Shown in pieces: positions 1 to 22,522 of a DNA stretch of 39,624 bases. A program made the position numbers and the translations under genes. The stretch lies in IMG/VR virus record IMGVR_UViG_3300032883_000203; one strand, given 5' to 3'. The stretch's first letter is position 1. Every line of letters begins with the position of its first letter. The notes below the pieces were generated by a model, which did no database searches, had not been told where the DNA came from, and saw only the letters and a program-made list of their open reading frames with translations. This DNA comes from a virus.

Positions 1-123
1 AACAGTTGATGCGCCGCTGTGCCGTGATGGCCCAGGACTCGGACTTGGTGCCTACGCCGAAAAGTTGGACGCGCACATTACCCCCGCGGGAAGCCGTCCA
101 TGTAGATGTTGTAGGTGGCATTG
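1..123. repeat. Terminal direct repeat identical to 39502-39624; signature of a circularly closed or terminally redundant assembly (unit length 39,501 bp)
   Basis: Base-by-base comparison of both window ends (aacagttgatgcgccgctg...gtaggtggcattg). Confidence 0.95.
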
Positions 124-809
124 CTGCGGCTCACTATGGACGGGTCGAACTCGGCCACCATCTCCTTGATGTTCGCCCTCTTGATGTTCCCCTTCGCCTC
201 TGCCGCGTTCTGCACAAGCCGCGCATAGGACTTCTCGTCCAGCAGCACGGGGAAGCCGGCGCTCTGCATGTCCAGCGCGAGATTGAGCACGTAGGCCCGC
301 TCATACCCGACCGGCAGGGACAGCGCCGTGGTGAGAACGGAATAGTCCACCTGGTCGGTAGTGGAGTTATAGAACACCGTGTAGCCGATCAACGGCACCG
401 GAAATACACTGATGACGCCCAGCGGGTACTGGCTCGAGTAGAACAGCATGTCCGGTATCTGGCTGGTGATGCCCTTTTCCCCGATGTCGTCCCACTCCTG
501 CTGCGTGATCACCCGCATGGGGTAATCGTTGGCGTTGCTGTCGCGCAGGAACGCGCTGATGATGTCGTATGGCCGAGTGGCGTTGATCATGCCGCCAGTC
601 CCGATGGTGTAGTTCTGCGTCCCTGCCACCAGCGGGAAGCTGCGCTGCAGGATCACGTAGGACATCAGCGACTCGTTCGACCATGAGTCCAGCAGCCGGT
701 TGAAACAGGACAGACCATCGGTAGCATCTGCCGCAGACATGACCTCTGTGCGCCCCAAATAACCCAGGGCACGTGCTGATGCTGTGATGATGTCTGCGGC
801 GGTTGTCAT
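78..809 (-). CDS. Head-to-tail adaptor / tail accessory protein (P22 gp4-like position), 243 aa
   Basis: ORF track. N-terminal DIITASARALGYLG...FNRLLDSWSNE resembles gp4-type adaptors. Its TAA is followed after 1 nt by the GTG of the gp10-like gene across the circular joint. Confidence 0.5.
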   Translation of the reverse strand: MTTAADIITASARALGYLGRTEVMSAADATDGLSCFNRLLDSWSNESLMSYVILQRSFPLVAGTQNYTIGTGGMINATRPYDIISAFLRDSNANDYPMRVITQQEWDDIGEKGITSQIPDMLFYSSQYPLGVISVFPVPLIGYTVFYNSTTDQVDYSVLTTALSLPVGYERAYVLNLALDMQSAGFPVLLDEKSYARLVQNAAEAKGNIKRANIKEMVAEFDPSIVSRSNATYNIYMDGFPRG

Positions 810-3008
810 TTAGGCTGCCTCCGGGGGTTTCTGTGCCTGTGTGAGATGCGTATGGAAGTTACCCTGCCATCCCTTGATGCCGTAGTGGCCGAACGCGATG
901 TTCGGATAGATCCACGACTCGACCCCGATCTCCTGCATCCTGAGGCCGAATACACGGTCTTCGCCCCAGCGCAGTGATGTGCCGTCCGGGCTCACCTTGC
1001 GCTCGCAGACGAAGAACTCGGTGTACAGGCGCTCTGGATAGCTCGGGTCTGCACCCATGTCGTGGTACACATAGTCTTTGTAGTGGTCCTTGTACTTCTG
1101 CAGGGCAGCACGCTTGATGCGCAGGAAGCCGCCTGCCAGATACTGGGCTTTAAGGAGCGCAGAACCGTCCGGCAGGATGCGACCGACGGGATGGAACGTG
1201 CCTTCCTTGTCTGCCGATGGTTCGAGATGTGGGCGTGCCGTGAATGTCTCCCACATGTTCTTCTGTGGGTACGAGCCCTGCACGATCTCCTCGGGCTGCA
1301 TCAGCATCTGGATGAAGCCGTTCGGATCCCATTGCATATCCGAATCGATCATAAAGATGTCAGTCGCGAACGGGTCTTCGAGGAACTTGTTGAATAGCGT
1401 GTTCTTCGCCCTGTCCACGTAGGAATCCCCTGACAGTTCCCAGAACTCGTGCTCGATGCCGTTACGGGTCAGTATCTGGATGGTCTGCACCAGGCTCGCT
1501 ATGTAGGGACTGAAGCCGCGCATCTCGTAGAACGGCGTGGCGATGATGACCTTCATCCTCGGCTGGTAGTACGGCAGCTTCGCATCGTAATAACGCTGTT
1601 TCAGCTTCCTGCCCTCTGCCTGGTCAAGTATCGACTTGTTGCCATCGTGGATGCGGGTGTGCGTCAGTGACTCTTCTATGACATGGATGTTTTCGCGCTG
1701 CAGGAGCCGCAAATACATCTCGAAGTCGGTCAGAACACCGTGTTCTGCGTTCCAGCCGCCGAGGTCGAGCAGCACCTTGCGGCGGTACATTCCGACCCCG
1801 AAGTACTGGTTGCCGTAGTACATTTGCCGAAGCCACTCTTCCCTGGGCTTGTTCGCTGCCTTCTGGATGTGCTTGAACGTGTGGTCAGCGGCGTACGGGT
1901 TGCCGTCCTTGTCTATGAAGTCCGTCTGTGTCGCCACGAACTCAAGCCAGGGATCGCGCACGAACTCGTTCACCATGCGCTCAATGGTGCTGGGATCTAT
2001 CAGGTCATCGGCGGCAAGGGACACGAACCATTCACCCGTCGCCATGGCCGCCATCTGGTTGATGGCCGCTACAGTTCCCCGGTTTTCGTCGAACTGGAGG
2101 AACCGGATACGGTTGTCGGAGAAGTTCTGTATGACCTTGACCGATTCATCCGTGCTCGCGTCATCCAGAACCAGCACCTCAATATCCTGGTATGTCTGAT
2201 TAAGTGCCGACTCAATCGCATTGGCAACGTACCCGGCCATGTTGAAGTTCGGGATCCCTATGCTGACCTTCCCTGTCGTGGGCGGGAACGGGATCGGATG
2301 TCTCTCCCGCACAAGCGCCATGTCGGCCGCAAAGCGCTCCGCCTGGCCCTCGTGTGGCGCTGTAAGCCTCGTGTCGGGTTGGTCAGCATCTGCAAAGCGG
2401 TACGGCAGGATGCGGCCTTCGTACTTCTCGAAGAAGCGCACGAACCATTCGAGATCGGACGGACCGAACAGTGCGGGGTCGAACCCGCCGATGTCGGCAT
2501 AGCACTCGCGCCGCATCAGCATGGACGCCCCACCGATGGGGATGTTCTCCAGGCGCACGAGCGTGCGAATCCACGCCTCACGCGTCCTGTTGTGCGCTCT
2601 CAGGGCGAACTGTTCCCACGTGGGGCGCTCGCCCATGCCCATCTCGGACTTGCCCGGCAGGCCCCACACACAGCCGATATTGGCGTGCGAGTCCAGATAT
2701 TCGACCTGCACGGCCAGTTTGTCGGGCGATATCCACTCGTCAGCAGACAGCGGCTGGAGATAGTCTCCAGAACTGTGCGCCATCGCGTAGTTCAGCCCGT
2801 GAGGGATTCCTTGATTTACATCAAAACGGTGGACAAGGATTCGTGCGTCGTTGAACTCGTTCACCACCGCGGCAATGTCCTCGGTGGACCCGTCGTCGAC
2901 AATGAACAGGTCCCAGTCGGTGAACGTCTGGGCACGCACGGACTCGATCATCCTCTTGAGATAGCCGGACTGATTGAGCACCGAGGTGCAGATGCTGACC
3001 CGGCTCAC
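810..3008 (-). CDS. Three-domain glycosyltransferase (two GT2-type GT-A domains plus a third GT-A-like domain), 732 aa
   Basis: Domain 1: SICTSVLNQSGYL...FIVDDGSTED. Domain 2: SIGIPNFNMAGYV...LVLDDASTDES...LAADD. Domain 3: KVIIATPFYE...IDSDMQW...GEDRVF. Confidence 0.8.
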   Translation of the reverse strand: MSRVSICTSVLNQSGYLKRMIESVRAQTFTDWDLFIVDDGSTEDIAAVVNEFNDARILVHRFDVNQGIPHGLNYAMAHSSGDYLQPLSADEWISPDKLAVQVEYLDSHANIGCVWGLPGKSEMGMGERPTWEQFALRAHNRTREAWIRTLVRLENIPIGGASMLMRRECYADIGGFDPALFGPSDLEWFVRFFEKYEGRILPYRFADADQPDTRLTAPHEGQAERFAADMALVRERHPIPFPPTTGKVSIGIPNFNMAGYVANAIESALNQTYQDIEVLVLDDASTDESVKVIQNFSDNRIRFLQFDENRGTVAAINQMAAMATGEWFVSLAADDLIDPSTIERMVNEFVRDPWLEFVATQTDFIDKDGNPYAADHTFKHIQKAANKPREEWLRQMYYGNQYFGVGMYRRKVLLDLGGWNAEHGVLTDFEMYLRLLQRENIHVIEESLTHTRIHDGNKSILDQAEGRKLKQRYYDAKLPYYQPRMKVIIATPFYEMRGFSPYIASLVQTIQILTRNGIEHEFWELSGDSYVDRAKNTLFNKFLEDPFATDIFMIDSDMQWDPNGFIQMLMQPEEIVQGSYPQKNMWETFTARPHLEPSADKEGTFHPVGRILPDGSALLKAQYLAGGFLRIKRAALQKYKDHYKDYVYHDMGADPSYPERLYTEFFVCERKVSPDGTSLRWGEDRVFGLRMQEIGVESWIYPNIAFGHYGIKGWQGNFHTHLTQAQKPPEAA

Positions 3009-3739
3009 TGGAAAGGCCCCTTGTGACCCACGAACAGACTACCCTCACGATTCGCCATCGGCATCTCCTCGAAGTTGACTACACGCTTCCAGTCGTTCTT
3101 CTGTGACCACATCGGCACGCCAATCTTGTTGAAGTGGTCATAGATCTCGTGTGCATTGGTCCCGTTGCGGACCTCGAGCACGCAGTCCATGTGAGCACAG
3201 TCATCAGCCGTCATGGTCTTGCACAGTTCAGCCTCGTTGCCTTCGCTGTCGATCTTGGCGAAGTCAGTGCCGGGCCAGAGATCCTTGCAGTCCACTACCT
3301 TGACCACAGTTTTCTCGGTTGGTCCATAGCTGTGCTTGAACCCTTCCAGATGATTGCCGGTCAGGTTGTTAAGCACCCGAACGAAGCTCGCATTCCCGTT
3401 CTCGGTGGATACCGCATAGTTGAATGGTCTAACCCTGTTGGCACTGTTGGCCGCTAGGTTCTCAAGCAGTTTCGGAAAGTGCTCCGGGTCGGGCTCGTAG
3501 CACCTGACATCCCAGCCCATCCTGGCCATGCAGATGGAGTGCAAACCAAGGTTCGCGCCGATGTCCAGCACGTGTTTCCAGCGGTGCTTGTTCTGTGCGT
3601 ACATGGCAAAGATCATCAGCTCGGTATCGCCGAACAGGTGAAGACTGTCGATGTTCCCCATCTTGACGTAAGGGAACTTGATGGGTCCGAATGGCCCGAA
3701 ACAGTCTGTAAGCACCTGCTGCGCACGGGCGCGGCTCAC
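3005..3739 (-). CDS. FkbM-family SAM-dependent methyltransferase, 244 aa
   Basis: LDIGANLGLHSICMARMGWDVRCYEPDPEHF motif block. 4-nt overlap with the downstream glycosyltransferase gene. Confidence 0.7.
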   Translation of the reverse strand: MSRARAQQVLTDCFGPFGPIKFPYVKMGNIDSLHLFGDTELMIFAMYAQNKHRWKHVLDIGANLGLHSICMARMGWDVRCYEPDPEHFPKLLENLAANSANRVRPFNYAVSTENGNASFVRVLNNLTGNHLEGFKHSYGPTEKTVVKVVDCKDLWPGTDFAKIDSEGNEAELCKTMTADDCAHMDCVLEVRNGTNAHEIYDHFNKIGVPMWSQKNDWKRVVNFEEMPMANREGSLFVGHKGPFQ

Positions 3740-4053
3740 TCAATCCCCGCCATTTGTCGGTCTTCCTTGTAGGTTCCAGCCTGCACGTTGTCTCCTTCGA
3801 TGGTTGCGATGATGGATTTTTCCCGCAGCACCACCAACATTTCCCCGTTCACTGTCGTGATCTGGTGTCCGTTGGTGGAGAACAGGATCTTGTCTCCGGC
3901 CTTGACCGAGGTTGCCTTCGGACCTGACGCAACAACCGTCCCGATGTCCTCGCGGTAATCCTCAGACCATGCCAGGAGAATACCGCCAGCCGAAACCTCT
4001 GCAGGCTCCGACCGGCGGATGACGACCACATCTCCAAGAGGGGAGATGTTCAT
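3736..4053 (-). CDS. GroES/Cpn10-like co-chaperonin, 105 aa
   Basis: ISPLGDVVVIRR...AGGILL...IGTVVASGP...VKAGDKILF...GEMLVVLREKSIIATIE follows the GroES consensus (PLgDRVlV...GGI...G.VvAvG...vkvGD.Vlf...DIlA). Confidence 0.75.
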   Translation of the reverse strand: MNISPLGDVVVIRRSEPAEVSAGGILLAWSEDYREDIGTVVASGPKATSVKAGDKILFSTNGHQITTVNGEMLVVLREKSIIATIEGDNVQAGTYKEDRQMAGIE

Positions 4054-4301
4054 GCGGCAACCGTGGAGCAGGCAATCAGCCCCAGGTTGTTGAGCGCGAT
4101 GGCGATGGAACTTGCCAGAGCACCCGAGCTTTGCGACAGAGATGCGAAGCTCGAACCAGAACCGAGCAACACGGTGCCGACCTTGGATACTGCCGTGGTC
4201 ACACCATAGAACCCGATCAGGTCCGAGGGGCCGGTTCCCAGCAGGGTTCCGACCGCGTTACCGTCACTGAGCTGACGGAAGGCTGTTGAGGTAATAGGCA
4301 T
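4050..4301 (-). CDS. Small hypothetical protein following the coat gene, 83 aa (possible capsid accessory protein)
   Basis: ORF tightly packed between the coat and GroES-like genes (overlapping stop/start); Gly/Ser/Ala-rich. Confidence 0.5.
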   Translation of the reverse strand: MPITSTAFRQLSDGNAVGTLLGTGPSDLIGFYGVTTAVSKVGTVLLGSGSSFASLSQSSGALASSIAIALNNLGLIACSTVAA

Positions 4302-4303
4302 GA

Positions 4304-5500
4304 TTACGCACCTCCCAGACGGGTAGCGAGTTCATCGTAGTACACGGTCGACCCATACAGAATGTCGATCCGCGTCGGGAACACGTCGTTGTTGATGTCG
4401 TATGCCCGGATGACGCGCATGCTGATGTTACGGTAGGTCTCGCGGGCAGCGAAGTCCACCCCTTGCGGGATCTCCATCGGCACCATCACCAGACCGAATG
4501 CATCACGGGTGAACGCGATGTTCTGCGGAGAACCGATTTGCGTGTTGGTCGTGCCAGTCAGCCAGGTAACGGTCGTTGCAACCGCCATGGCGCCCGTAAC
4601 GTTCTGGTAAGGGCCAGAAGTAACGATTGCCGGGCTGAACGTGAGGATGGTGGTCGATGCAGCGGCACTCGTGGCCGTCAGCGTGAAGTTCTTCAGCACG
4701 CCGGTCGACTGGCGGGACTGCGGATTCACGTTGAACACGCCGTTGACCGTGAACACTTCACCGATGGCGTAGGTATCCGCAGGCGTTCCACCGAATACGC
4801 TGGTGGTGTTGCCGTTACCCTGGGCCGTGGTGATGACCGCGGTCAGCGAGGTATTGTGCTGCGCACCAGCCAGAGCCTGGATGTTCTGGTCCATGTAGAC
4901 CTCGTAATTACCGATGGTCGCAAGGTAGCCTTTGACCAAGGCATCCTTTGCGGTCGGCATCACGAACAGACCCGTTTGACCACCGGCCAGGCCCCAGTAC
5001 CCGTTCGGGTTCAAAACCAGCGTCCGGTTGTCTTGAGGTGCCGAGTTGTCATCCATGCGGCGCCCGGTCAACTGCACCGAGCTGGAAAACGCCACAGGGT
5101 TGACCGTGGGCGTGCCCACGTAGTTGCTGATGCCCGTGACGTTGGTGAGTACGTCAAAGTCCACTTGGTTCGCCAGAGAGGCCATGGAAGGCTTCAGGTA
5201 GCGCTCGGAGAACTCCTCGACCGTCAGCGTCAGGTCTTGGGACGTGAACTGGAAGTCGACGTGCTTCTGTTGGTTGACTGTGATGGTGACCGACGGTTCT
5301 GCAATGTTCTGGACTTGCAGGCCCGCGCCCGACGCAACCGTGAACTTGTTCGGCTTCCTGATCGTGAGAGCGTTACCGATCTTCACGAACTGGTTCTCGA
5401 ACTTGCGGTTGATGCGGTTGGCGGCCACCAGGTTGTTCTCCAGGATCACCAATGATTCCTTGGTGATGATCGTAGGAGTAAGCAGTACCTGGGTAGACAT
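4304..5500 (-). CDS. Major capsid (coat) protein, 398 aa, resembling the family annotated P22-coat-like
   Basis: N-terminus LTPTIITKESLVILENNLVAANRINRKFENQF..GNALTIRKPNKF. AAGGAG 7 nt upstream of the ATG. Position after the scaffold gene. Confidence 0.8.
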   Translation of the reverse strand: MSTQVLLTPTIITKESLVILENNLVAANRINRKFENQFVKIGNALTIRKPNKFTVASGAGLQVQNIAEPSVTITVNQQKHVDFQFTSQDLTLTVEEFSERYLKPSMASLANQVDFDVLTNVTGISNYVGTPTVNPVAFSSSVQLTGRRMDDNSAPQDNRTLVLNPNGYWGLAGGQTGLFVMPTAKDALVKGYLATIGNYEVYMDQNIQALAGAQHNTSLTAVITTAQGNGNTTSVFGGTPADTYAIGEVFTVNGVFNVNPQSRQSTGVLKNFTLTATSAAASTTILTFSPAIVTSGPYQNVTGAMAVATTVTWLTGTTNTQIGSPQNIAFTRDAFGLVMVPMEIPQGVDFAARETYRNISMRVIRAYDINNDVFPTRIDILYGSTVYYDELATRLGGA

Positions 5501-5515
5501 GGTAGGGCTCCTTCG

Positions 5516-6556
5516 TTAGTGCCTGGCACCTCGTCCCCAATCGGCCTTGCGCTTGGCTGCGTACTCTTCCATGGACATGTCCTCGAGGGACTTGCTCACG
5601 GTGTCGCTGCCTGCTGCGATGGGCTTGATGGGTCGCGGTGCGGCGGATACAGGGGGTTTGGTTGCTGCAGGTGGAGTTTGATTCGCCAGCTTGTCGCCAA
5701 TTTTTCGCAATGCATAAACCTGCTCAAGTATGTTCGGAACAATTTCCATTTGACGTGTATTCGGGTTGAACAACGTCAATGTCATGTTCGAAATTCGAGC
5801 CGCTTCTTCAGGATGACTCCCAAGGTAATGCTGAATATCAACACCGTGTTCGTTCTGCTTGATCTCTTCTGCCATGGGCCTTGAAACAGTAACGTCGGGC
5901 CTTCTCGCGACTTCATCGAAATCGGGATACCTTTCCACGGCTTTACTGACTCTCAACGCATAGGCTTCATCAATCGTACGTTGTTGTTCTTCAATTACCC
6001 TTGCTTGTGCTTCCCGCATTGCTTCAAAACGAGCTTTCTCGATTTCCCTTCGGGCTGTCCATGCGGCCTTGGCCTCGGTGTGAAAGTCCATGGCAGCGTC
6101 ATAGGCATCCGGATCGGAAAAATCGTGGCGCGATGGCCTGACGGGCTCCGAATCGTCGCGCTGTGGTGCCGGCGCCGGCGGTTCCTCGGGATTACCCGAA
6201 GCCCTTTCCAGTGCGGCCAACGCTTTGGCAAGTTGTTCGCTTGCCTGTCGCTCTCGTTCCCGTCCTTCTCGTTCCTCTCTTAACTGCTGACGCAACTCCG
6301 CGAGTGCTTTTCCAACACCACGGGGCTTTTCTTCTCCCGCCTGTTGTCCGGATTCCTCTTCCGTCGCAGGGGTCGCCGATTCCCCCGGTTGTTCCGCCTG
6401 AGCTTCAGGTTCTGCTTCAACCTTGGCAGGCTCGGCCGCTACAGAGTCTGGCTTTGTCTCTACCACCGGCATGTCATTGGTGGAAGACAATGGCGGACTC
6501 TGCTGGTCCAGCAGGTCAAGGACGGCAGGTTGCTCGACTACTAGTGCATCAGACAT
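5516..6556 (-). CDS. Scaffolding protein, 346 aa
   Basis: Acidic, Ala/Glu/Pro/Arg-rich and apparently helical; sits immediately upstream of the coat gene. Confidence 0.6.
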   Translation of the reverse strand: MSDALVVEQPAVLDLLDQQSPPLSSTNDMPVVETKPDSVAAEPAKVEAEPEAQAEQPGESATPATEEESGQQAGEEKPRGVGKALAELRQQLREEREGRERERQASEQLAKALAALERASGNPEEPPAPAPQRDDSEPVRPSRHDFSDPDAYDAAMDFHTEAKAAWTARREIEKARFEAMREAQARVIEEQQRTIDEAYALRVSKAVERYPDFDEVARRPDVTVSRPMAEEIKQNEHGVDIQHYLGSHPEEAARISNMTLTLFNPNTRQMEIVPNILEQVYALRKIGDKLANQTPPAATKPPVSAAPRPIKPIAAGSDTVSKSLEDMSMEEYAAKRKADWGRGARH

Positions 6557-8289
6557 GTGGGCGATCCCTTCCTATGGTGAAAAAAAAACTGTGCCATCTC
6601 CATGATGACCTCTTCGTCATCCTCTTCCTCGATGTGCTCGACCAGCGCGTTGATGCGCTCGGTCAGTGCGTCAGCACGGGCGATGTATGCATCAGCCGTT
6701 GCCGGGGTCGGGACTTCCTCGATGAAGGTATCGACCTCTTTCACCACCTTGGCAATTCGCTTGGCCTCGGCCTTCGGGAGAATGCCCATCTCGATGCGCA
6801 GCTGCTTCATGCGCTCGAGTTCCTCGGCCTTGTCCTTCAGGTCGCGATACCACCAGGGGCGGCGGGTGCCATCGAAGCCTTCGTAGCCCCACCATGCGGG
6901 CGCACCGCCGGACGGGGCTGGTGGAGCAATGGGCGTGGCGCCGCTAAGACCGGATGCTGCCGCCTGGAGCGCCTTGAGGGAGTCGACGCTGTAGCCGCGA
7001 GCACCGACAGCGCCGAACGCCTGTGTCTGGAGAGCCCGCAGCGTGTCGACGGCACCGGTCACGGAACCGGAACGACCCGTTGCCGTGTCCGTCAGGGGGC
7101 GCAGCGTGCCGGCAGCGCCGCCTACCACGAGATTGCTGCTGACCGTGCCGCCGGCATTGGTCAGCAAGGCGCGCAACGTGTCCTTGGCGCCCGTAATCGC
7201 GCCGGCAAGGCCCGTCGCCGCTTCGTTGAATGCGCGCAGGGTATCGGTCGTTCCGGCGGAGTAACTGACCGTGCCGCCGGACAGGTTCGTGAGGTGCTTG
7301 AGCGTATCCGTGCCCCAACCGATATCGCTCAACTGCCCGGAAGCGGTCGCAGTAATGGGCTTCAACGTATCCCTGCCGCTGCCGATGTCTGCAATGGCGC
7401 CAGTCGCGCTCGCGGTCAACGGCTTGAGCGTGTCCTTTGCCCCCGTCAGCGCACCGCTGGCACCGGTTGCAGTCTCGGTCAGCGCCCGCAGGGTGTCGGT
7501 CGTGCCGGCTAGAGCACCTGCAAGACCGGTCGCCAGTTCGGTGAGCGGCTTGAATGTATCGGCGCCGCCGCCGGTCGCATTTGTGACGCCACTGGGAGCA
7601 TTTACGTAGATTTGTGGTTTCCTGGGCGGAAACAACGACCACGGGTTCTGATGCAGCTGAAAAATCTCCGAATCCGTGAGGACGCGGTAGAACACATAGA
7701 CAAGGGCAACGCCACCCGTTAAGAACGTGGCGCCACGCTTGCCAATGAACAGGTTCTGGCTGCTCGTTATGCTTCCAGTAGCGCCGGTGGCATCGGTCGC
7801 TTTCCTGCCATCGGCGAAGAATGACAAGGTGGGACCTGTGAATCTGCCGGTAAAGTGATGGAATTGGCCATCGTTGAATCCGGTGATCGTGCCAGTCGGC
7901 AAGATGGACCCACTCGACTGTGAACGAGCCCCCATTGCTCCAGGCGTAGCGCCGAGTCCACAAGCGAGTTCGAATCCGGCTGTGCCGGTACTTGACCGAC
8001 TGGAGATAAAGAACGAATCCGCCTGCGAGCTTTGTGCTATGACCCCGAATGTAACCGTGGAAGTGACAAGCGCTGCTCCGAGGTCTGTCGACTGCGAGGA
8101 ACTCGCCGTATAACTGCCGGCAATGACCTGTCCTACGACAGAAGTGCCGAAGCCGTTCTGATATCTGGGCGGGAATGTCGTCGAGTTGACGGGCGTCCAG
8201 AGCAGCGTAGGCGCTCCGAAAGGCCCGTTGTATATCTGCCCTGATATGCCGAGCGGCTGTACATCTCTTTTGCCAGGCAGGAGGATCAT
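6541..8289 (-). CDS. LamG/concanavalin-like lectin-domain protein with ten 21-aa repeats and a helical acidic C-terminus, 582 aa
   Basis: N-terminal GQFHHFTGRF...LSFFADG...NLFIGKRG...VYVFYRVLTDSEIFQLHQNPW (Laminin_G_3-like). Repeats have the form DTL[KR]xLTxxAxGxxGxxxG. C-terminus WWGYEGFDG...KAEELERMKQLRIE...EEEDDEE. Confidence 0.65.
   Translation of the reverse strand: MILLPGKRDVQPLGISGQIYNGPFGAPTLLWTPVNSTTFPPRYQNGFGTSVVGQVIAGSYTASSSQSTDLGAALVTSTVTFGVIAQSSQADSFFISSRSSTGTAGFELACGLGATPGAMGARSQSSGSILPTGTITGFNDGQFHHFTGRFTGPTLSFFADGRKATDATGATGSITSSQNLFIGKRGATFLTGGVALVYVFYRVLTDSEIFQLHQNPWSLFPPRKPQIYVNAPSGVTNATGGGADTFKPLTELATGLAGALAGTTDTLRALTETATGASGALTGAKDTLKPLTASATGAIADIGSGRDTLKPITATASGQLSDIGWGTDTLKHLTNLSGGTVSYSAGTTDTLRAFNEAATGLAGAITGAKDTLRALLTNAGGTVSSNLVVGGAAGTLRPLTDTATGRSGSVTGAVDTLRALQTQAFGAVGARGYSVDSLKALQAAASGLSGATPIAPPAPSGGAPAWWGYEGFDGTRRPWWYRDLKDKAEELERMKQLRIEMGILPKAEAKRIAKVVKEVDTFIEEVPTPATADAYIARADALTERINALVEHIEEEDDEEVIMEMAQFFFHHRKGSPTCLMH
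6940..7572 (-). repeat. About 10 tandem coding repeats of about 63 bp (21 aa) inside the LamG-like gene
   Basis: Units such as TTDTLRALTETATGASGALTG, AKDTLKPLTASATGAIADIGS and GRDTLKPITATASGQLSDIGW, read from the translation. Confidence 0.8.
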
Positions 8290-8292
8290 TGC

Positions 8293-8772
8293 TTACGCCA
8301 CCGTATACGTCACGCCCGTATAGACGGCGGTGAAGTTGGCTGCGGTGGAATTGAGCGCGAATCCACTTCGATTGCTGATGACGAAACCCCAGGCCGCGGG
8401 CATGAACCCGAGCGCCTGTGCAACGGATACCTCGTCCCGGTATATGGTGGTCGCTGCAGGGGTGTTGATGATGTGCGCCTGCACGAGGTTGGTGGGTGAA
8501 TCGAGCGTGATGCCAATGTCCGTGCTGACGTTCTCCGTGCGACTGCCATTCCACATGATCCCGTCGAGGGACTCGTACAGGTAAATCTGGCACGCCTTCA
8601 GGTCCACGGGCGCGTTGGTGCTCGTCTGCACCTCGATGTGCAGGATGGCATCGTCGTATCGCGTGGTCGTGTTGTAGACCGGCGTGCTGCCACGGGCGCT
8701 GCTCGCTGCCAGCGTGGACATGGTGCAGGTGATGGCGCTGGTTACTGCATATTGGGGTTGTATGGTCGCCAT
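8293..8772 (-). CDS. Hypothetical protein (putative virion-associated), 159 aa
   Basis: ORF in tight operon packing (ATG directly follows the upstream stop); beta-rich, Thr/Ser/Ala-rich. Confidence 0.5.
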   Translation of the reverse strand: MATIQPQYAVTSAITCTMSTLAASSARGSTPVYNTTTRYDDAILHIEVQTSTNAPVDLKACQIYLYESLDGIMWNGSRTENVSTDIGITLDSPTNLVQAHIINTPAATTIYRDEVSVAQALGFMPAAWGFVISNRSGFALNSTAANFTAVYTGVTYTVA

Positions 8773-9210
8773 TTAGGGCCCCGCTGCGTAGTAGACATCG
8801 TAGAACCCGACCAGCGTACCGATCCCGAACAGCACCTCGCCCCGGCTTGCCTGCTTGAATTGCAGCGCAGCGAGGTTGGAACGCGTCGCCGCGGCGCTGC
8901 TCGTGTAGACAGCAAGCGCCTGCGCCTTGATGTTCGAGCTGTTGATGGCTACAGAGCCTTGAGCTGCCGTGATGATGGCTTGCCACAGGTCACGCTGCTG
9001 CTGGTTGAGCGCCAAGTACTCCGAAGCTACCACCGCGTTCTGCAGGTCCTGGGCGTTCACATAAGCAACGCTGGTGCTCTGCCCGTTCGCGGGGTTGTTC
9101 AGTACGTCGGCGATGCCGGACCAGTTCTTGGCAGCGACGAGCGCGGCATATCCGAGCGCGTTCGGGTCGCTCTGTATCTCCACCTTGAGCAGCTGCGTGA
9201 CGATGGCCAC
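8773..9210 (-). CDS. Hypothetical protein, 145 aa
   Basis: ORF tightly packed between flanking ORFs; no motif recognised. Confidence 0.5.
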   Translation of the reverse strand: MAIVTQLLKVEIQSDPNALGYAALVAAKNWSGIADVLNNPANGQSTSVAYVNAQDLQNAVVASEYLALNQQQRDLWQAIITAAQGSVAINSSNIKAQALAVYTSSAAATRSNLAALQFKQASRGEVLFGIGTLVGFYDVYYAAGP

Positions 9211-9212
9211 GA

Positions 9213-9617
9213 TCAGTGCTCCGGCAGGATCAGGACGTAGCTGGTGACGGAGACGCTGGCACCCTGGGCGAAGTTGTTCGTGTTGAAGTTCATGTCCGAG
9301 GCTGCCGTGCTGATGCTGCCGTCGATCTGGACCACCCGGCTGGACGACACGGCCCGATAGAACAGCGCAATGCCGGAGCTGGTCGCCGTGGTGGCCGTGA
9401 TGGCGTTGGCGGTCCAGGTGCTCGAGGCCGCGGTGCCGGCTGTACCACCGAATGCAAGCTCGGCCAGCAGGAAATGGCTTGCCGTGGTGTTGGTGTTGGC
9501 ATCCGCGGGCTGGCTGGATCCCGCATAGATGTCGATGAATCCGGAGTTCAGTTGCACACCGATGGCGGCCAGCGCTGTCGATGCACTGGTGTTGCTCTGA
9601 AACAGGTTCGATGGCAT
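9213..9617 (-). CDS. Hypothetical protein (putative virion-associated), 134 aa
   Basis: ORF; Ala/Thr/Ser-rich and beta-rich (IDIYAGSSQPADANT...LAELAFGG...ALFYRAV...IDGSIS). Confidence 0.5.
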   Translation of the reverse strand: MPSNLFQSNTSASTALAAIGVQLNSGFIDIYAGSSQPADANTNTTASHFLLAELAFGGTAGTAASSTWTANAITATTATSSGIALFYRAVSSSRVVQIDGSISTAASDMNFNTNNFAQGASVSVTSYVLILPEH

Positions 9618-9722
9618 TTACTTGGCCTCCTCTTTCATCTGGCGAAGGTTGGAAGCCCCGCCACCCACAATTGGCACCGGTACTGGTGCGGGTTGCTCTG
9701 CTGGCTTCTGTTCATCGCTCAT
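9618..9722 (-). CDS. Possible micro-ORF, 34 aa (MSDEQKPAEQPAPVPVPIVGGGASNLRQMKEEAK)
   Basis: Its ATG overlaps the portal stop (ATGA) and its TAA abuts the next ATG, so it fills the portal-9617 gap exactly. Below the ORF-track length cut-off. Confidence 0.3.
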   Translation of the reverse strand: MSDEQKPAEQPAPVPVPIVGGGASNLRQMKEEAK

Positions 9723-12094
9723 TGCACTGTCGTCCTTTTCACCCGCTTCGCCTTGGCAATGCGGTTGGTTTTCGGGTCACGCTCGAAATGGATCTCGATG
9801 TCGTTCATGTCCTTCATGCGAGCCTCGAGTTCCTTCACCTGCGTGTGCAGCTTCTCGTTTTCCTTGTCGTACTTGGTGAGATCAGGCTCCTTGCTGGCCA
9901 TCTCCCGAGCCTTCATGTCCTGTTGCATCTGGGCTATCTGCAAATCCTTGCCCATCTTGAGCAAGTCGGTATGGAACTGCAGTTGCATTTGCGCCACCTT
10001 GGCCTCGAAGTCGGCCTGCACCTTGGCAAGCTGGTGCTCGGTATGCGCACCCTGTCCGTTGCCCTCTGCCATCTTTACCTGCAGCGCCGCTATCTTTGCC
10101 TCGAAGTCCGCCTGGACCTTGGTCATCTTGGCTTCGTAGTCCTTGGCGATGGACTCGCGGTCGTTCATGACGCTCATGCGGTCGATCTCTCGGTCCTTCT
10201 CTTTGTCGCCCAGCATGGCAACAGCCTTGTCGTGCTCCTGCTTCAGTTGCTGCATCTGCTGCATCAGGGAGGAAACAAGGGCTTTCGCTTCGGGCGGGAG
10301 CTGGTCGAGCTTCTTGTCGAGCAGGTGCGGCGGCAGCATGGAAGCCAGGCGCGAGCCAATTTCCTCAGCACCCGGCCAGTCCATATTCTTGGCAATCAGG
10401 TCTCCAATGAGCGGCCCGGACTGTGGCACGGCCTTCATGAACGCTAGCATGGAGTCGGCTGCTTCAGCCCGCTTGGTGGCAAAGCTGGGACCGACCGTCA
10501 CGGCCACGTCGTAGTCGCCGAGCTTAGGGTTGTAGAGGCGCTCGAGCCGGCCGTCATGGGTCTGGCGCTGCCCGTGCGGTGTCTGCAGGTTGGGGTCGAC
10601 CTTCACCCGTTCTTCAGATCCGTCCTCTCGCAGGATAGTAAGAACCCTGGGGGTGTCGTAAATCTTCGGGATAAGATCAATGAGAATCCGTCCGGTATGT
10701 TTAAGACTTCGGGAAAGGTTGTCGACGTAGTGAAAATTTCCCAGGTCCCCGGTCCGCTTAAGCTCACGTAGTGCTCGTCCAGATTCATCGTAGGTGCGCT
10801 CCTGCAAAGTGGCATCGAACCTGATACCGGTCGTTGCCTGCATGTCCTGAGCGGCGCTGATCTTGGCTTGTACAACACCAGCAGGCGGGCCAGCGAACTG
10901 CTGACGCTGCGGGGGCGGCGCAGGCTTGCCGGCCAGGTTCACGCCCTTGTAGAGCAGGTAGGGCAAGGACTTGTTGTTCGCTTCCTTCCACCGTTGCTCG
11001 TGTCCTTCTATCTGGCCCTCTTCCATCACCCACGGGGCTTTCGGGGCAAGGGCAATCAGCTCGGTCTCGCTGGTCACCCAGAAGTTGTACATGCGCTGGG
11101 CATCCTTGGCGTCACGGATCAAGCCGGCAAGGTTGGTCTTGCCCTCGATGTCGATCTCGTCGCCGATGACCTTGACGATAGGTATCCATTTGCCGGGCCA
11201 GTCCTGTTCCTCGAGGATCTCCTTGGCGGTGAGCTTGTACCACTTGATCTTGCGCTGCTGCACGTCACGCTCATCGACCCGCTCGGCATCCTTCAGGGAC
11301 TCGTCCAGTTCATCCTCGAATCCCACGTGACCGTTCGCGAGGTGGACGAGCTTCCGTTCCTCGTTCTCCACGCAGAAGTATTCAGCGATGCGGATGTGGC
11401 TCGAGGTTGACCAGTTCTTGTACTCGTCGCCGATGCCGCCCTCTTCCCATGGATAGTCATGGGCATCGGGGAACATTTCCTTGAACTCTTCCCGCGGGAT
11501 CATGTCGCTGATGAATCCCCACTTGGCGTCAGAGCCGTCTGGCTCCTCGCTGTCCGTGTCCAGGTAGACCCTGAACGGGTTCTTGATGCGGGCAATCTTC
11601 ACGACCTGGTCGAAGGTGTCGTCGTCTTCGTAGTCGGTCAGGATGCGCCAGTAGCCCCAACCATTCGATACGGCGTTGTCGAACGCGGTGTCATACGCAA
11701 CATCGGCATTGCACTGGCGCTCGATCTGCCGGATCAGGCCCTTGAGCATCTGCGCTGTCTCTGGGTCGGACTTGTCACCGACCGGGCTCACGTTGATGGC
11801 TGGACGGTTCTGCCGCTGGTCGTTCGTTATCTGGTGCACGAACGTCTTCATCTTGTTTATGGTGAGGCACGGGCGCTTCTCGAGCGTGCGGCTGGCCCTC
11901 ACCTGCTCCGGCCACTGGTCCCCGGCCTTGAAGCGAAGGTCTTCCACGGCCATCTGCCGGTTACGCGACTCCTGGGATTCGGCACGGTTGAAGCGCTTGA
12001 CGATCTTCGCAATCTTGACGTCCTGACCCTGCTCGGTCTTCTCGTCGTAGTCGTCCTCGTCGGGCTTGCGGTCTGTCTGTATCGGTCCGGCCAT
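9719..12094 (-). CDS. Portal protein, 791 aa, with a long C-terminal coiled-coil extension
   Basis: VEDLRFKAGDQWPEQVRASRTLEKRPCLTINKMKTFVHQITNDQRQNRPAINVSP...SNGWGYWRIL portal-type block. Position after TerL. C-terminal about 150 aa is helical with a duplicated KVQADFEAK unit. Confidence 0.85.
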   Translation of the reverse strand: MAGPIQTDRKPDEDDYDEKTEQGQDVKIAKIVKRFNRAESQESRNRQMAVEDLRFKAGDQWPEQVRASRTLEKRPCLTINKMKTFVHQITNDQRQNRPAINVSPVGDKSDPETAQMLKGLIRQIERQCNADVAYDTAFDNAVSNGWGYWRILTDYEDDDTFDQVVKIARIKNPFRVYLDTDSEEPDGSDAKWGFISDMIPREEFKEMFPDAHDYPWEEGGIGDEYKNWSTSSHIRIAEYFCVENEERKLVHLANGHVGFEDELDESLKDAERVDERDVQQRKIKWYKLTAKEILEEQDWPGKWIPIVKVIGDEIDIEGKTNLAGLIRDAKDAQRMYNFWVTSETELIALAPKAPWVMEEGQIEGHEQRWKEANNKSLPYLLYKGVNLAGKPAPPPQRQQFAGPPAGVVQAKISAAQDMQATTGIRFDATLQERTYDESGRALRELKRTGDLGNFHYVDNLSRSLKHTGRILIDLIPKIYDTPRVLTILREDGSEERVKVDPNLQTPHGQRQTHDGRLERLYNPKLGDYDVAVTVGPSFATKRAEAADSMLAFMKAVPQSGPLIGDLIAKNMDWPGAEEIGSRLASMLPPHLLDKKLDQLPPEAKALVSSLMQQMQQLKQEHDKAVAMLGDKEKDREIDRMSVMNDRESIAKDYEAKMTKVQADFEAKIAALQVKMAEGNGQGAHTEHQLAKVQADFEAKVAQMQLQFHTDLLKMGKDLQIAQMQQDMKAREMASKEPDLTKYDKENEKLHTQVKELEARMKDMNDIEIHFERDPKTNRIAKAKRVKRTTVQ

Positions 12095-12484: not shown

Positions 12485-12718
12485 TCAGCCAATCTCGATC
12501 TCATGTGGTTGAACCTTGGACGCCAGGCAGCCGAGCACGTAGTCACGGAAGGCTTCGCGGCGCTCCCGGTTCTTGCTGCCGGGCTTGTTCTCGATGTCGG
12601 CAGAGAACGTGCCCTCGGGCGTGGTGGCCATCATGCGCAGGGCATCGCGGTCGTTCTCGATGTCGTAGAACTCGTAGTCACTGAAGCGAACGAAGTAGGT
12701 CTCGGTCATCCCATCCAT
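12485..12718 (-). CDS. Hypothetical protein, 77 aa
   Basis: ORF between TerL and the next gene; acidic. Confidence 0.4.
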   Translation of the reverse strand: MDGMTETYFVRFSDYEFYDIENDRDALRMMATTPEGTFSADIENKPGSKNRERREAFRDYVLGCLASKVQPHEIEIG

Positions 12719-13977
12719 GCGACCCCCTCATCACCCTTGCTGTAGGCCAGCACACGGACTTCTGGCTTGGCTACCTGCTTGCGCGGCAGGCCGATGCATT
12801 CACCGAGCGTGCGCAGCGCATCGGCAGCATGGGAGTTGTCATCGTGCAACGGCTCCTTGGCCCACTGCCCGTGCTCGTTGATGTCGTACCGGTAATGGCG
12901 CAACGCCTGGAGCCCGTCCTTGCAGTGCTGCTCATCGAACCATAGGCGGTTGAACAGGGACTTGGTGGCGTTGATGCCGAGCTTCTTGTCGGGAATGCGC
13001 TGGACCGTGACGACCTTGTGGCCGACGTCCTTCATCTGCTTGGAGATGGACGGCGCCGCCAGGGTCTCATGGTCGGCATCGTGTGGCAGGTAATGCTCGG
13101 CGTAGACATAGCCGCGGTTCTGAATCTTCTCGAGGTAGTGCGAGAGCTTCTGCAGCCGGTTCTGGTAGAAGTCGATGATGTGATAGTCGAAGCCTACCTT
13201 CTGCGCGAACCAGATGGACGTGCAGTCGCTGAACCCCAGGTCCCAGAAGGTGTGCACGGGAACGCGATGGTCGTAGGCAACCCGGGTGATGCGCCCCTCG
13301 TCGGTGGCCTCGCGCAGCTCGGTGGCGTAGATGGCGCCATCCAGCGTGACGCGGCAATGACCCTCCCAGATGTTCAGGTACGCATCTGGGTCGCGGTTCT
13401 TGAGTGTCTCCATCTCTTCACGGAGCACATCAGGAAACCAGGGATTGTCAGACCAGTTGACCTTGGCCACGAACGTATGCGGGGGCGGGTTGAGCACGAA
13501 GCGCTCGTATGTCTCGTCGCTGTCCAGCTCGGGGTTGAACGTGACCCATATCTCGGAGCTGGCCTTGCGGATGGTCGGGATCAGCGTCTCCCAGCTCGAC
13601 TTGCTCACCGTCTGGGCTTCCTCCACCCAGCAGCGATCCACGCCCTCGTAGGACTTGATCTTGTTGACGTTGTGGCGCAGGCCCTCGAAACTGAACTCGG
13701 TGCCGTTGGCGCCCTTGATGCTGTTGAGCGTGATCTCGTAGAAGTCCTCGAGGCCCAGGGCATAAACCTGGTCGGCAAGGAGCTTGTGCACGCTGTCCTT
13801 GATGCTGGACTGGAACTCACGGGCACAGAGGATACGCAGCGGGCTGCGCCATCCCTGGAACAGCAGCGCCCGGGCACAGGCCCAGGACTTCGCACCCCCG
13901 CGGCCGCCGTACGCTACCTTGTAGCGATGGGACTGGAGCAGGAACTCAAGGCGCTTTGGTAGTTGCAACGTCAGCAT
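12706..13977 (-). CDS. terL: Terminase large subunit, 423 aa
   Basis: RYKVAYGGRGGAKSW Walker-A block; CWVEEAQ (Walker-B-like); C-terminal nuclease-like HYLPHDADH...DDNSHAADAL; upstream of the portal gene. Confidence 0.85.
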   Translation of the reverse strand: MLTLQLPKRLEFLLQSHRYKVAYGGRGGAKSWACARALLFQGWRSPLRILCAREFQSSIKDSVHKLLADQVYALGLEDFYEITLNSIKGANGTEFSFEGLRHNVNKIKSYEGVDRCWVEEAQTVSKSSWETLIPTIRKASSEIWVTFNPELDSDETYERFVLNPPPHTFVAKVNWSDNPWFPDVLREEMETLKNRDPDAYLNIWEGHCRVTLDGAIYATELREATDEGRITRVAYDHRVPVHTFWDLGFSDCTSIWFAQKVGFDYHIIDFYQNRLQKLSHYLEKIQNRGYVYAEHYLPHDADHETLAAPSISKQMKDVGHKVVTVQRIPDKKLGINATKSLFNRLWFDEQHCKDGLQALRHYRYDINEHGQWAKEPLHDDNSHAADALRTLGECIGLPRKQVAKPEVRVLAYSKGDEGVAWMG

Positions 13978-17945: not shown

Positions 17946-18452
17946 ATGGCCAACTCACCCGCTTTGTATCAGTTATCGGATCAGTACCTGCACGACCTGG
18001 AAGCCCTCCATGACTCCGACTTGCCTGATGTGGTGGTACAGGACACGCTTGCTGGTCTGGCGGGTGAGCTTGAGGATAAAGCTACCGCTGTTGCTATGTT
18101 TGCTCGCAATCTGGAAGCTGCGGCTGAAGCTATCAAGCTGGCGGAGGGCAAGATGGCCGAGCGCCGCCGAGCCATGGAACGCCGGGCCGATGCCATCCGC
18201 AAGTACCTCAAGGACAACATGGAGCGCACGGGCATTTCCCGCATCGAGTGCCCGTACTTCACGCTCAAGATCGCCCGCAACCCGCCCGCGGTAGTGGTGG
18301 ACGATGCCCACGCCATCCCCGCCGACTTCTGGGTACAGCCACCGCCACCACCGGTACAGCTCGACAAGAAACAGGTCGCAGCCACCATCAAGGCCGGTGC
18401 CCAGGTGCCCGGGGCGCATCTCGAGCAGGGCACCCGGCTGGTGATCGAGTGA
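17946..18452 (+). CDS. Siphovirus Gp157-like protein, 168 aa
   Basis: ALYQLSDQYLHDLEAL...coiled coil...ISRIECPYFTLKIARNPPAVVVDD...IPADFW pattern of the Gp157 family as I recall it. Confidence 0.55.
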   Translation: MANSPALYQLSDQYLHDLEALHDSDLPDVVVQDTLAGLAGELEDKATAVAMFARNLEAAAEAIKLAEGKMAERRRAMERRADAIRKYLKDNMERTGISRIECPYFTLKIARNPPAVVVDDAHAIPADFWVQPPPPPVQLDKKQVAATIKAGAQVPGAHLEQGTRLVIE

Positions 18453-19159: not shown

Positions 19160-19482
19160 AGCTCCACAAGTACGGCGCCGTGCGTACCCAGGTGGATGGC
19201 ATCAGCTTTGCCAGCAAGGCCGAGGCAGCGCGCTACAAGGAACTGAAGCTGCTCGAGAAGGCCGGCGAGATATTCGGTCTACAGATGCAGCCCCGCTTCC
19301 CGATTGATGTTAACCAGGTTCATATTTGTGATTATGTTGCCGACTTCAAATACCACAGGTACCTGGACTCAGGCCATCAAGTGAATGTGGTCGAAGATGT
19401 GAAGGGAGTTAAAACGCCCGTGTACCGGCTCAAGAAGAAACTTGTGCTTGCCCTCTACGGAATCGTCATCAAGGAGATATGA
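19156..19482 (+). CDS. DUF1064-like protein (restriction-endonuclease-fold, putative junction resolvase/nuclease), 108 aa
   Basis: KYGAVRTQVDGISFASKAEAARYKELKLLEKAGEI..L..QP.F...ICDYVADFKY...VEDVKGVKT.VYRLKKKL. Confidence 0.6.
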   Translation: MKLHKYGAVRTQVDGISFASKAEAARYKELKLLEKAGEIFGLQMQPRFPIDVNQVHICDYVADFKYHRYLDSGHQVNVVEDVKGVKTPVYRLKKKLVLALYGIVIKEI

Positions 19483-22314: not shown

Positions 22315-22315
22315 C

Positions 22316-22519: not shown

Positions 22520-22522
22520 CAA

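Follow-up and report, generated by a model that had tools for sequence, protein, structure and literature searches.

A three-domain glycosyltransferase and an FkbM-family methyltransferase in the head-gene block of an uncultured P22-type phage: a candidate system for glycosylation of the phage particle

Virus-encoded multidomain glycosylation machinery is already a known kind of system, and, to our knowledge, the only phages shown to glycosylate their own particles are a few mycobacteriophages; outside the phages, the same has been shown only for the giant algal viruses. Glycosylation of mycobacteriophage virions, involving Che8 gp110, Corndog gp38 and Myrna, was reportedly described by Freeman et al. 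in 2023. Here we analyze a three-domain glycosyltransferase (GT) of 732 amino acids (aa) and an adjacent FkbM-family methyltransferase (MT), both encoded in the IMG/VR virus record IMGVR_UViG_3300032883_000203, a stretch of 39,624 nucleotides (nt) referred to below, at its full length, as the window. With a probability of roughly 0.5, we propose that the two enzymes glycosylate a virion protein with a short methylated oligosaccharide during head assembly.

In Paramecium bursaria chlorella virus 1 (PBCV-1), the proteins A111/114R (three GT domains) and A064R (GT-GT-MT) build the glycan of the major capsid protein (PMC7826918), each domain adding one residue in the cytoplasm without host machinery (PMC7826918, PMC9614988). 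The window resembles PBCV-1 in joining several GT-A-type domains in one viral polypeptide, with a methyltransferase proposed to act on the product. Domain 2 of A111/114R was modelled on the chondroitin polymerase K4CP (PMC7826918), which is also a solved relative of domain 2 of the window GT, and PBCV-1 A64R is found among the fold matches of domain 3. In contrast to the window, PBCV-1 is a eukaryotic giant virus with N-linked glycans and a double-jelly-roll capsid protein, and the likeness is one of architecture and fold; the methyltransferase is fused in A064R, whereas the window has a separate gene for it, of the FkbM family. The mycobacteriophages Che8, Corndog and Myrna are described, in two papers, as glycosylating their virion proteins with their own GTs (PMC12363180, PMC12619734). 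These phages are sipho- and myoviruses of Actinobacteria with single-domain GTs, whereas the window belongs to a P22-type podophage in which a three-domain fusion is fixed between the coat and adaptor genes. The A197 protein of Sulfolobus turreted icosahedral virus (STIV) is, similarly to domain 3, a small viral GT-A protein with a DxD motif, but it comes from an archaeal virus, has 191 residues and 15% identity, and aligns with a moderate TM-score; we know of no acceptor identified for it. K4CP shares with the window protein tandem GT-A (GT2) domains in a soluble polypeptide, but it polymerises a capsule polysaccharide and is encoded in a bacterial capsule locus, whereas the window protein has three domains, an adjacent methyltransferase and a place in a phage head operon. 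The gtrABC systems of O-antigen conversion likewise comprise a phage-encoded GT2 domain and share a PHROG label with the window protein; they differ in that their GtrB is associated with the membrane, acts together with GtrA and GtrC, and belongs to a prophage, whose lysogeny region is the site of its expression.

The genes that form the coat-to-adaptor block of the window, listed in the direction of reading, are as follows:

4304-5500, minus strand: P22-type major coat protein, 398 aa (PF11651, E 3.8e-35; phrog_283, E 3.4e-70)
4050-4301, minus strand: 83-aa Ser/Thr/Gly/Ala-rich open reading frame (ORF), directly after the coat gene
3736-4053, minus strand: GroES/Cpn10-like co-chaperonin, 105 aa (PF00166, E 5.5e-15; phrog_3188)
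3005-3739, minus strand: FkbM-family S-adenosylmethionine (SAM)-dependent methyltransferase, 244 aa, GTG start
810-3008, minus strand: three-domain glycosyltransferase, 732 aa, GTG start
2289-3008, within the GT: domain 1 (GT2), aa ~1-240
~1569-2288, within the GT: domain 2 (GT2), aa ~241-480
813-1568, within the GT: domain 3 (A197-like GT-A), aa ~481-732
78-809, minus strand: probable head-tail adaptor (P22 gp4 / SU10 adaptor position), 243 aa
38141-39622, minus strand: gp10-like gene, next after the 243-aa ORF across the circular junction

The earlier note on this DNA, made from the sequence alone, had recognized three GT-A modules in the ORF at 810-3008, and this was borne out, for domains 1 and 2 by Pfam GT2 models and for domain 3 by its predicted fold. 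PF00535, which we take as equivalent to CAZy GT2, matched two separate stretches of the protein (E 5.8e-57, 192.7 bits against a cut-off of 23.3; best stretch aa 249-413), PF10111 matched aa 6-196, and both PF10111 and PF13641 scored above their cut-offs. The assignment of each domain to a family, proposed in the note and carried out here with Pfam, therefore succeeded for domains 1 and 2 but not for domain 3, which has no Pfam model. Domains 1 and 2 are paralogous (26% identity over ~200 aa, E 9e-22) and have a common insertion. The best solved sequence relative of domain 2 is Escherichia coli K4CP (PDB 2z86, E 7.3e-24), in a match that spans only aa 248-379, the nucleotide-binding half of one domain, and heparosan synthase is also among its solved matches. 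The closest named families of domains 1 and 2 are TuaG, PgaC, EpsE, WcaA and K4CP, that is, GT2 enzymes of cell-wall or exopolysaccharide synthesis; PHROGs place the GT2 parts with 'GtrB-like O-antigen conversion' families, and the JGI name of the protein is 'glycosyltransferase involved in cell wall biosynthesis'. No transmembrane segment was detected in the GT, the maximum 19-residue Kyte-Doolittle mean being 1.00.

Each domain carries recognizable metal- or nucleotide-binding motifs: VDDGS and ADE in domain 1 (ADE standing in place of xDD), DD..D and ADD in domain 2, and GDSYV.RA.N, D555-x-D557 and GED in domain 3. Across 28 diverse homologues these motifs do not vary, and in 120 they are conserved to at least 95%; D38-D39 and D90-E91 of domain 1, as well as D282-D283, D287 and D334-D335 of domain 2, are found in all 28. 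Because the motifs are kept in 120 homologues, the three GT-A modules can be regarded as confirmed, and, as judged from this conservation, all three appear to be catalytically intact and under selection for activity.

Domain 3 (aa 480-732, the IDSDMQW module) is the most unusual part of the protein. It has no Pfam match, its sole family match is phrog_1574, which bears no functional label, and its sequence profile gave no match in the PDB even at E<=10; a distant member of the family reached PF00535 below threshold (21.6 bits against 23.3). AlphaFold2 (AF2) modelled aa 480-732 with a mean predicted local distance difference test score (pLDDT) of 92.7 and a predicted TM-score of 0.90. Foldseek comparison of this model with the PDB returned 77 matches at E<=0.001, headed by STIV A197 (PDB 2c0n; E 1.7e-8, TM-score 0.62 on the target) and followed by the glycosyltransferase domain of human LH3, mimivirus R655, SpsA, beta4GalT7 and PBCV-1 A64R, while nucleotidyltransferases, which have this class of fold too, appear further down. 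Among the predicted viral structures of BFVD, the best matches were GT-A proteins of uncultured tailed phages (TM-score 0.70-0.79), and a 788-aa protein of an uncultured phage named 'Methyltransferase FkbM' holds the same GT-A fold. On the strength of the predicted structure, domain 3 is an A197-like glycosyltransferase of GT-A fold. In an alignment of the window domain with 59 homologues, mostly stand-alone proteins, D76-S77-D78 (D555-S-D557 of the GT) is invariant in all 60 stand-alone or fused sequences, as it is in the 28 full-length homologues. The WGED motif is invariant as well; it presumably recalls the WG.EDD motif of beta4-galactosyltransferases, which we use only as a lead. The family is very large: among 1.84 billion proteins, the domain-3 profile matched 17,070 representative clusters at E<=0.001 and 1,442 at E<=1e-30. 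Its members occur in stand-alone, two-domain and three-domain architectures, and the fusion partners sampled include GT2 domains on either side, class-I methyltransferases and sub-threshold MptE-like regions.

The product of 3005-3739 is, as its family matches indicate, an FkbM-family methyltransferase (TIGR01444, 68.2 bits against a cut-off of 37.7; PF05050, 25.9 against 22.7; phrog_8156). The earlier note had described it as a 244-aa FkbM-type enzyme whose gene overlaps the GT gene by 4 nt, and both the coordinates (shared nt 3005-3008) and the curated cut-offs agree with this; a sequence search of the PDB gave only a chance-level match (E 0.15). An ortholog 73% identical lies at the same place in one related locus (L001, by our own numbering of the loci compared), and three further loci (L002, L003, L068) carry an FkbM gene elsewhere, upstream of the terminase gene. 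The FkbM family comprises sugar as well as non-sugar O-methyltransferases. We infer that the window enzyme O-methylates a sugar, on the basis of its adjacency to the GT and of the BFVD protein mentioned above, in which the FkbM name and the GT-A fold coincide.

Within the block, the intergenic distances from the coat gene through the 83-aa ORF, GroES, MT and GT to the adaptor gene are +2, -4, -4, -4 and 0 nt; the GroES gene thus overlaps each neighbour by 4 nt, and the 243-aa ORF begins right after the GT stop codon. Promoter- and terminator-like sites in 1-9800 were not more frequent than in shuffled sequence. The tight spacing, together with the chance-level frequency of such sites, lets the block be read as a single translationally coupled unit, and it is probably one tightly coupled, late unit of head morphogenesis. 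The earlier note had placed an island of two genes between coat and adaptor; its position inside the head-gene block is upheld, but the 83-aa ORF and the GroES gene, which separate the coat gene from the MT gene, had been overlooked. The 243-aa ORF matches phrog_12985, which has no functional label. Precomputed PF24175 (SU10_adaptor) matches are present in its orthologs or homologues in L052 (weak), L092 and L093, and its homologue in MW202573 is annotated as 'tail adaptor'; the proteins of L052, L092 and MW202573 co-align with the 243-aa ORF, the exception being the 339-aa L093 protein. In the compared loci its gene always lies ahead of the Phage_stabilise (gp10-like) gene. A profile of the adaptor proteins gave, as its best relevant match in the PDB, 'Head to tail adaptor Gp50' at an E of only 0.72.

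Megablast of window positions 1-8000 against 50,697 phage records returned nothing, and therefore there is no close sequenced relative among these records. At the protein level, tblastn with the window GT matched 133 records at E<=1e-5, and Mycobacterium was not among the ten of 13 organism names listed for them. The nearest relatives by portal protein (40-45% identity) are Xanthomonas phage PBR31, Rhodoferax phage P26218, Vibrio phage VvAW1 and the metagenome-assembled EBPR podovirus 1; the cultured relatives infect Proteobacteria. The slot between coat and adaptor, said in the earlier note to be empty elsewhere, contains no GT in PBR31, P26218 or EBPR podovirus 1, and in PBR31 the GroES gene lies ahead of the terminase gene. 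Metagenomic homologues of the three-domain GT numbered more than 466 at E<=1e-5; the 120 that were listed are 699-774 aa long and 54-100% identical, and lie on contigs of up to 44.5 kb, many of 39-44 kb. A scan of 185,579 species-representative bacterial and archaeal genomes with exact peptide patterns, which excludes close prophage copies but not distant ones, found no close relative of the GT and no prophage copies. All that it yielded were generic GT2 relatives, with identities of no more than 40% over portions of domains 1 and 2, and the three-domain fusion is therefore not a common prophage gene.

We compared 45 related loci from IMG/VR and metagenome assemblies, of which 30 span the whole stretch and 15 are incomplete. 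All 30 spanning loci have the order scaffold, coat, small ORF, GroES, (cargo), GT, (cargo), adaptor-like and gp10-like genes, and the 15 partial loci follow it as far as their sequence reaches; the GT is 51-82% identical across these loci, and the GroES gene stands between the small ORF and the GT in every related locus that reaches this point. Variation concerns the content of two slots, GroES-GT and GT-adaptor, which hold nothing in many loci and form an insertion hot spot. Several of the genes found there could serve glycan synthesis: the FkbM MT (the window and L001), a class-I MT (L052, L074), a 239-aa protein with a weak MT signature (six loci), an RmlD-like reductase (L052) and a nucleoside diphosphate (NDP)-sugar 4,6-dehydratase (L071; GDP_Man_Dehyd, E 1.8e-53). 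As far as can be judged from their sequences, the neighbouring or fused methyltransferases and NDP-sugar enzymes point to a methylated, possibly deoxy-sugar glycan. The slots of L052, L069, L072, L074, L088 and L063 also contain an M15 peptidase gene preceded by a 100-aa membrane-anchored-looking ORF, as well as a lipoprotein-like 154-aa ORF, membrane-anchored-looking ORFs of 165 and 83 aa, and endonuclease VII. L002 and L003, which come from Hainich groundwater assemblies, possess, besides the three-domain GT, an extra stand-alone A197-like GT of 257 aa (8918-9691) between the small ORF and GroES, which is 29% identical to the MW202691 protein.

Stand-alone homologues of domain 3 (~230-260 aa) occupy the coat-to-adaptor position in much more distant P22-like phages, with the following gene orders:

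L092 and L093: coat, small ORF, GT, B12-radical-SAM enzyme, further genes, SU10-type adaptor, stabilisation protein
L094: coat, small ORF, GT, adaptor-like gene
MW202691: coat, endonuclease, 68-aa ORF, 425-aa GT with a weak MT-like C-terminus, gp4, gp10
MW202573: coat, 78-aa ORF, class-I MT, 'A197 transferase', 69-aa ORF, tail adaptor

Because of this distribution, stand-alone and fused, in distant phages and in the protein clusters, the A197-like domain looks like the core of the island, and the window GT looks like an elaborated version of it. The cyanomyophage ACG-2014f (L102, NC_026927.1 218149-221696) has a domain-3 homologue within a group of tail-collar fibre genes, beside genes for a nucleotide-sugar epimerase, another GT and a '26-residue repeat surface protein'; the group may represent a counterpart of the island, directed at fibre glycosylation, in an unrelated lineage of phages.

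The 83-aa ORF, 27% of whose residues are Ser or Thr, belongs to a family with a conserved N-terminus (..QLSDGN.QGT.LG.S.TDLIGFYG), a variable middle part rich in Ser, Thr, Ala and Gly, and a C-terminus (..LGLI) conserved across distant phages. Ser and Thr make up 23-32% of the small ORF in the three-domain clade, and Thr runs occur in more distant members. The middle segment of the 83-aa protein, Ser-rich at aa ~45-66, keeps several of its serines unchanged in all close relatives. Homologues of 72-84 aa were found on the same contigs as the GT in 126 cases, many of which share identical longest-contig sizes. A hidden Markov model (HMM) of the family detected the small ORF in eight of nine loci with a GT in the head block, which are related genomes and not phylogenetically independent, and in one of six P22-like head modules without a GT (MW202520); it gave no match in PBR31, P26218, EBPR podovirus 1, MW202674 or MW202483. 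A tblastn search of the phage collection with a distant member returned nothing, a result probably due to the shortness and low complexity of the query. As it stands in these sequences, the association of the small ORF with the GT is suggestive, and the pairing is not obligatory because of two exceptions, MW202520 and L094. AF2 gave the 83-aa protein a pLDDT of 52.7, a single helix and no confident fold; such a low-confidence model would fit a disordered or partner-dependent protein but proves nothing. The 83-aa protein is, in our estimation, the best candidate for a capsid-associated glycan acceptor, with the coat protein and the Ser/Thr-rich repeat fibres as alternatives. One of the P22-like phages without a GT (L101, MW202483.1 17298-17909) has a putative 2OG-Fe(II) oxygenase gene directly upstream of the scaffold-position and coat genes, a further case of an enzyme gene within a head block.

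Taken together, the proposed mechanism is as follows. The 732-aa protein would be soluble and act in the cytoplasm. Of its three apparently intact GT-A catalytic domains, two are paralogous GT2 domains and the third is A197-like; each would most likely transfer one sugar from a nucleotide-sugar donor, and the FkbM enzyme would then O-methylate a sugar of the product. A particle protein would most likely carry the glycan, which would be built up during head assembly by an assembly line that is probably expressed late. The top fold matches of domain 3, which are viral and protein-glycosylating GT-A enzymes, favour this mechanism, and its link to particle assembly is strengthened because the gene order is fixed in 30 loci, distant stand-alone GTs occupy the same place, and sugar enzymes and methyltransferases recur as cargo. 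The virion glycosylation suggested in the earlier note is thus backed by the domains, the FkbM enzyme, their placement, the conserved synteny and cargo, the lack of a transmembrane segment and the lack of a close cellular relative, but this backing does not extend to the identity of the acceptor. Similarly, the 'tri-glycosyl unit capped by methylation' put forward there is the simplest reading only, as the best solved relative of domain 2 is the polymerising K4CP.

Several observations weigh against glycosylation of a particle protein. Its weakest points are the assignment of the acceptor, for which operon position is circumstantial evidence, and the permissiveness of the slots: genes of unrelated kinds (M15 peptidase, endonuclease VII, small membrane proteins) have been inserted there too, which makes them a permissive insertion site. 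The usual acceptors of soluble GT2 enzymes are lipid-linked saccharides or growing polysaccharides, and the best named GT2 matches of the window protein (TuaG, PgaC, EpsE, WcaA and K4CP) are such enzymes. The small ORF occurs without a GT in MW202520, the GT-bearing L094 has no detectable member of the small-ORF family, and the AF2 model of the 83-aa protein is uninformative. Finally, the domain-3 homologue of Rhodobacteraceae phage LS06-2018-MD06 lies among replication genes.

The polysaccharide affinities of domains 1 and 2 can also be read as a sign of remodelling of the host envelope, in which the soluble GT and the MT would act on undecaprenyl-linked or growing lipopolysaccharide, capsular polysaccharide or exopolysaccharide at the cytoplasmic face of the membrane and alter the surface late, for example to block adsorption of progeny or competitors to infected cells and debris. 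The cell-wall and exopolysaccharide GT2 families closest to these domains, the PHROG label of O-antigen conversion and the JGI name all agree with this. It is nonetheless unlikely: the GT has no transmembrane segment, the scanned ORFs showed no flippase, polymerase or partner of the GtrA/GtrC type, the gene occupies the head block, in distant phages too, instead of a lysogeny or moron module, and late expression would leave little time for a change of the surface. The absence of a transmembrane segment, of close cellular relatives and prophage copies in the 185,579 genomes, of contigs longer than 44.5 kb among the 120 homologues listed, and of an integrase among the scanned ORFs argues, in particular, against lysogenic serotype conversion. 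A gtrABC-type serotype conversion was rejected on the lack of a transmembrane segment and of GtrA/GtrC partners in these ORFs, on the head-operon position and on the failure to find prophage copies.

Domains 1 and 2 might alternate instead as a polymerase, producing not a defined trisaccharide but a repeating polysaccharide, free or attached to the particle, that domain 3 primes or caps and the FkbM enzyme methylates. K4CP, the best solved relative of domain 2, has two GT-A domains of its own, heparosan synthase matches as well, and the paralogy of domains 1 and 2 with their shared insertion would suit such an enzyme. As the match to K4CP extends over no more than the nucleotide-binding half of one domain, as no export or anchoring machinery is present, and as the multidomain viral precedents add one sugar per domain (PMC7826918), we consider polymerisation distinctly unlikely.

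The small ORF invites another comparison, with the precursors of ribosomally synthesized and post-translationally modified peptides (RiPPs): the 83-aa protein would be a precursor peptide, its conserved N-terminus serving for recognition and its variable Ser/Thr-rich part as the core, matured by the GT, the MT and a B12-radical-SAM enzyme, and the product would not necessarily belong to the capsid. A small ORF with a conserved N-terminus does lie directly upstream of GT, MT or radical-SAM (rSAM) genes in many lineages, the rSAM enzyme gives weak matches to models of RiPP C-methyltransferases and the GT to SunS-type peptide glycosyltransferases, and AF2 assigns the protein no autonomous fold. 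These model matches fall far below the cut-offs, however, no protease or exporter is present, and translational coupling ties the ORF to the coat gene, which ends 2 nt ahead of it, while its C-terminus is conserved as well, as would be expected of a structural accessory protein, which makes a RiPP-like peptide very improbable. Phage GTs classically modify DNA (PMC9614988, PMC12619734). Glycosylation of modified genome bases against restriction, as in T-even phages and others, was rejected as hardly credible: the genome does encode DNA methyltransferase-like proteins, but no dCMP/dUMP hydroxymethylase, thymidylate-synthase homologue or other base-hypermodification gene was found among the scanned ORFs, and the GT lies in the head block, not the replication block, with sugar-nucleotide enzymes and O-methyltransferase-type genes as companions.

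Glycosylation of a particle protein would need donor sugars, and the earlier note had looked for them in a second cassette (20308-26495), which contains:

20308-22314, plus strand: B12-binding radical-SAM enzyme (class B methyltransferase type), 668 aa (PF02310, PF04055)
22523-23452, plus strand: NAD-dependent epimerase/dehydratase, 309 aa (PF01370, E 1.8e-35)
23352-24122, plus strand: short-chain dehydrogenase (SDR), 256 aa (adh_short)
24793-25365 and 25239-26495, plus strand: acetolactate-synthase-like thiamine diphosphate (ThDP) enzyme in two frames (TPP_enzyme_N; TPP_enzyme_M and TPP_enzyme_C)

The cassette also encodes a DNA-methylase-like protein. The rSAM enzyme partially matches a model of KedN5-family C-methyltransferases (138.6 bits, far below the cut-off of 700). 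The ThDP enzyme has its N-terminal TPP domain in one frame and the middle and C-terminal domains in the other, with an overlap of 127 nt, which could be due to a frameshift, a sequencing error or a genuinely split gene. An ortholog of the rSAM enzyme (67% identical) is found on the contig that bears the GT locus L005, where orthologs of the rSAM, epimerase and SDR genes are present in the same order but not contiguous (L103). The B12-rSAM genes beside the stand-alone GT in L092 and L093 encode proteins only 23-25% identical to that of the window, and a pattern scan found no orthologs of the ThDP enzyme. The co-occurrence of GT and radical-SAM genes, a check proposed in the note and examined crudely within flanks of up to 10 kb, is thus seen in the single ortholog-bearing contig found, which also carries the GT, but not for the ThDP enzyme. 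The supply of the donor sugar from this cassette is a weak link: three of its genes recur in one GT-bearing genome, but the cassette contains no nucleotidyltransferase. ThDP-dependent branching of the YerE type and B12-rSAM C-methylation of NDP-sugars are known reactions, and a tailoring role is plausible for this reason; tentatively, the rSAM enzyme could tailor the glycan and the epimerase and SDR the NDP-sugar, while a link of the ThDP enzyme to glycan synthesis is speculative.

The remaining features of the genome that concern the particle are:

1-39624, whole window: circularly assembled complete genome of a P22-type phage, ~39.5 kb
12706-13977, minus strand: large terminase
9719-12094, minus strand: P22-type portal (phrog_156, E 3e-140)
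9213-9617, minus strand: 134-aa virion protein
6541-8289, minus strand: 582-aa Laminin_G_3 / repeat protein
5516-6556, minus strand: scaffold

The first 123 nt recur exactly at 39502-39624, and the genome is for this reason regarded as circularly assembled and complete; its GC content per kb is 55-64%. Beyond 38141, in the order of the late genes, lie fibre, ejection-type and further genes. The gene at 6541-8289, between portal and scaffold, overlaps the scaffold gene by 16 nt at its end. Its product has a concanavalin-like domain (Laminin_G_3) at the N-terminus and, at aa 244-456, nine repeats of 21 aa that share a D(T/S)(L/F)(K/R) motif; a collagen-repeat protein takes its place in L002 and L003, and the window protein may be a head fibre or a further glycan acceptor. 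The 679-aa product of 36213-38252 (minus strand) contains 30% Ser and Thr and repeats of ~30 aa (..GTLTSVALSSAV.GL.V.GSPV..), has no Pfam or PHROG family match, is conserved in relatives only in its N-terminal ~100 aa, and is probably a variable tail fibre. A 429-aa PurD/GARS-like ATP-grasp ligase is encoded at 29394-30683 (minus strand; TIGR00877, E 3.5e-28, below its cut-off) and kept in L005, L052, L053, L078-L080 and L083 (57-77% identity). Its place at the end of the ejection-protein block is odd for a homologue of the purine pathway, and a role in joining an amino acid to a sugar or protein is conceivable. Genes of the early region (17946-19482, plus strand) include those for a RusA-type resolvase, a DNA-methyltransferase-like protein and a Mu Gam-like end-protection protein. 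The scanned parts of the genome yielded no gene for a DNA polymerase, an integrase or a tRNA, and PADLOC returned only generic methyltransferase and rSAM matches.

What distinguishes the island is its fixed head-operon place in a large uncultured P22-type clade, a GT-A core without a Pfam model and a co-located candidate acceptor. We tentatively suggest, as a possibility some way short of even, that a large uncultured radiation of P22-type podophages carries a fixed capsid-glycosylation module, consisting of an A197-like core, a purpose-built, disordered Ser/Thr-rich acceptor whose gene directly follows that of the coat, lineage-specific GT2 fusions, recruited methyltransferases (FkbM, class I and B12-radical-SAM) and NDP-sugar enzymes. 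We know of no such capsid-glycosylation system outside actinobacteriophages and giant viruses. The locus offers several handles: a compact cassette of ~3.5 kb (nt 810-4301, comprising the small ORF, GroES, MT and GT) for expression with or without the coat gene, a defined candidate acceptor in the 83-aa protein, and a very large GT-A family tied to the solved structure of STIV A197. If the proposal is true, glycan-coated capsids would be common in the viromes of groundwater, soil and freshwater, and capsid glycans would be widespread in environmental podophages whose cultured relatives infect Proteobacteria. This would bear on adsorption, particle stability, aggregation and recognition by antibodies and lectins, and on how the 'auxiliary metabolic' glycosyltransferases of viromes are read.

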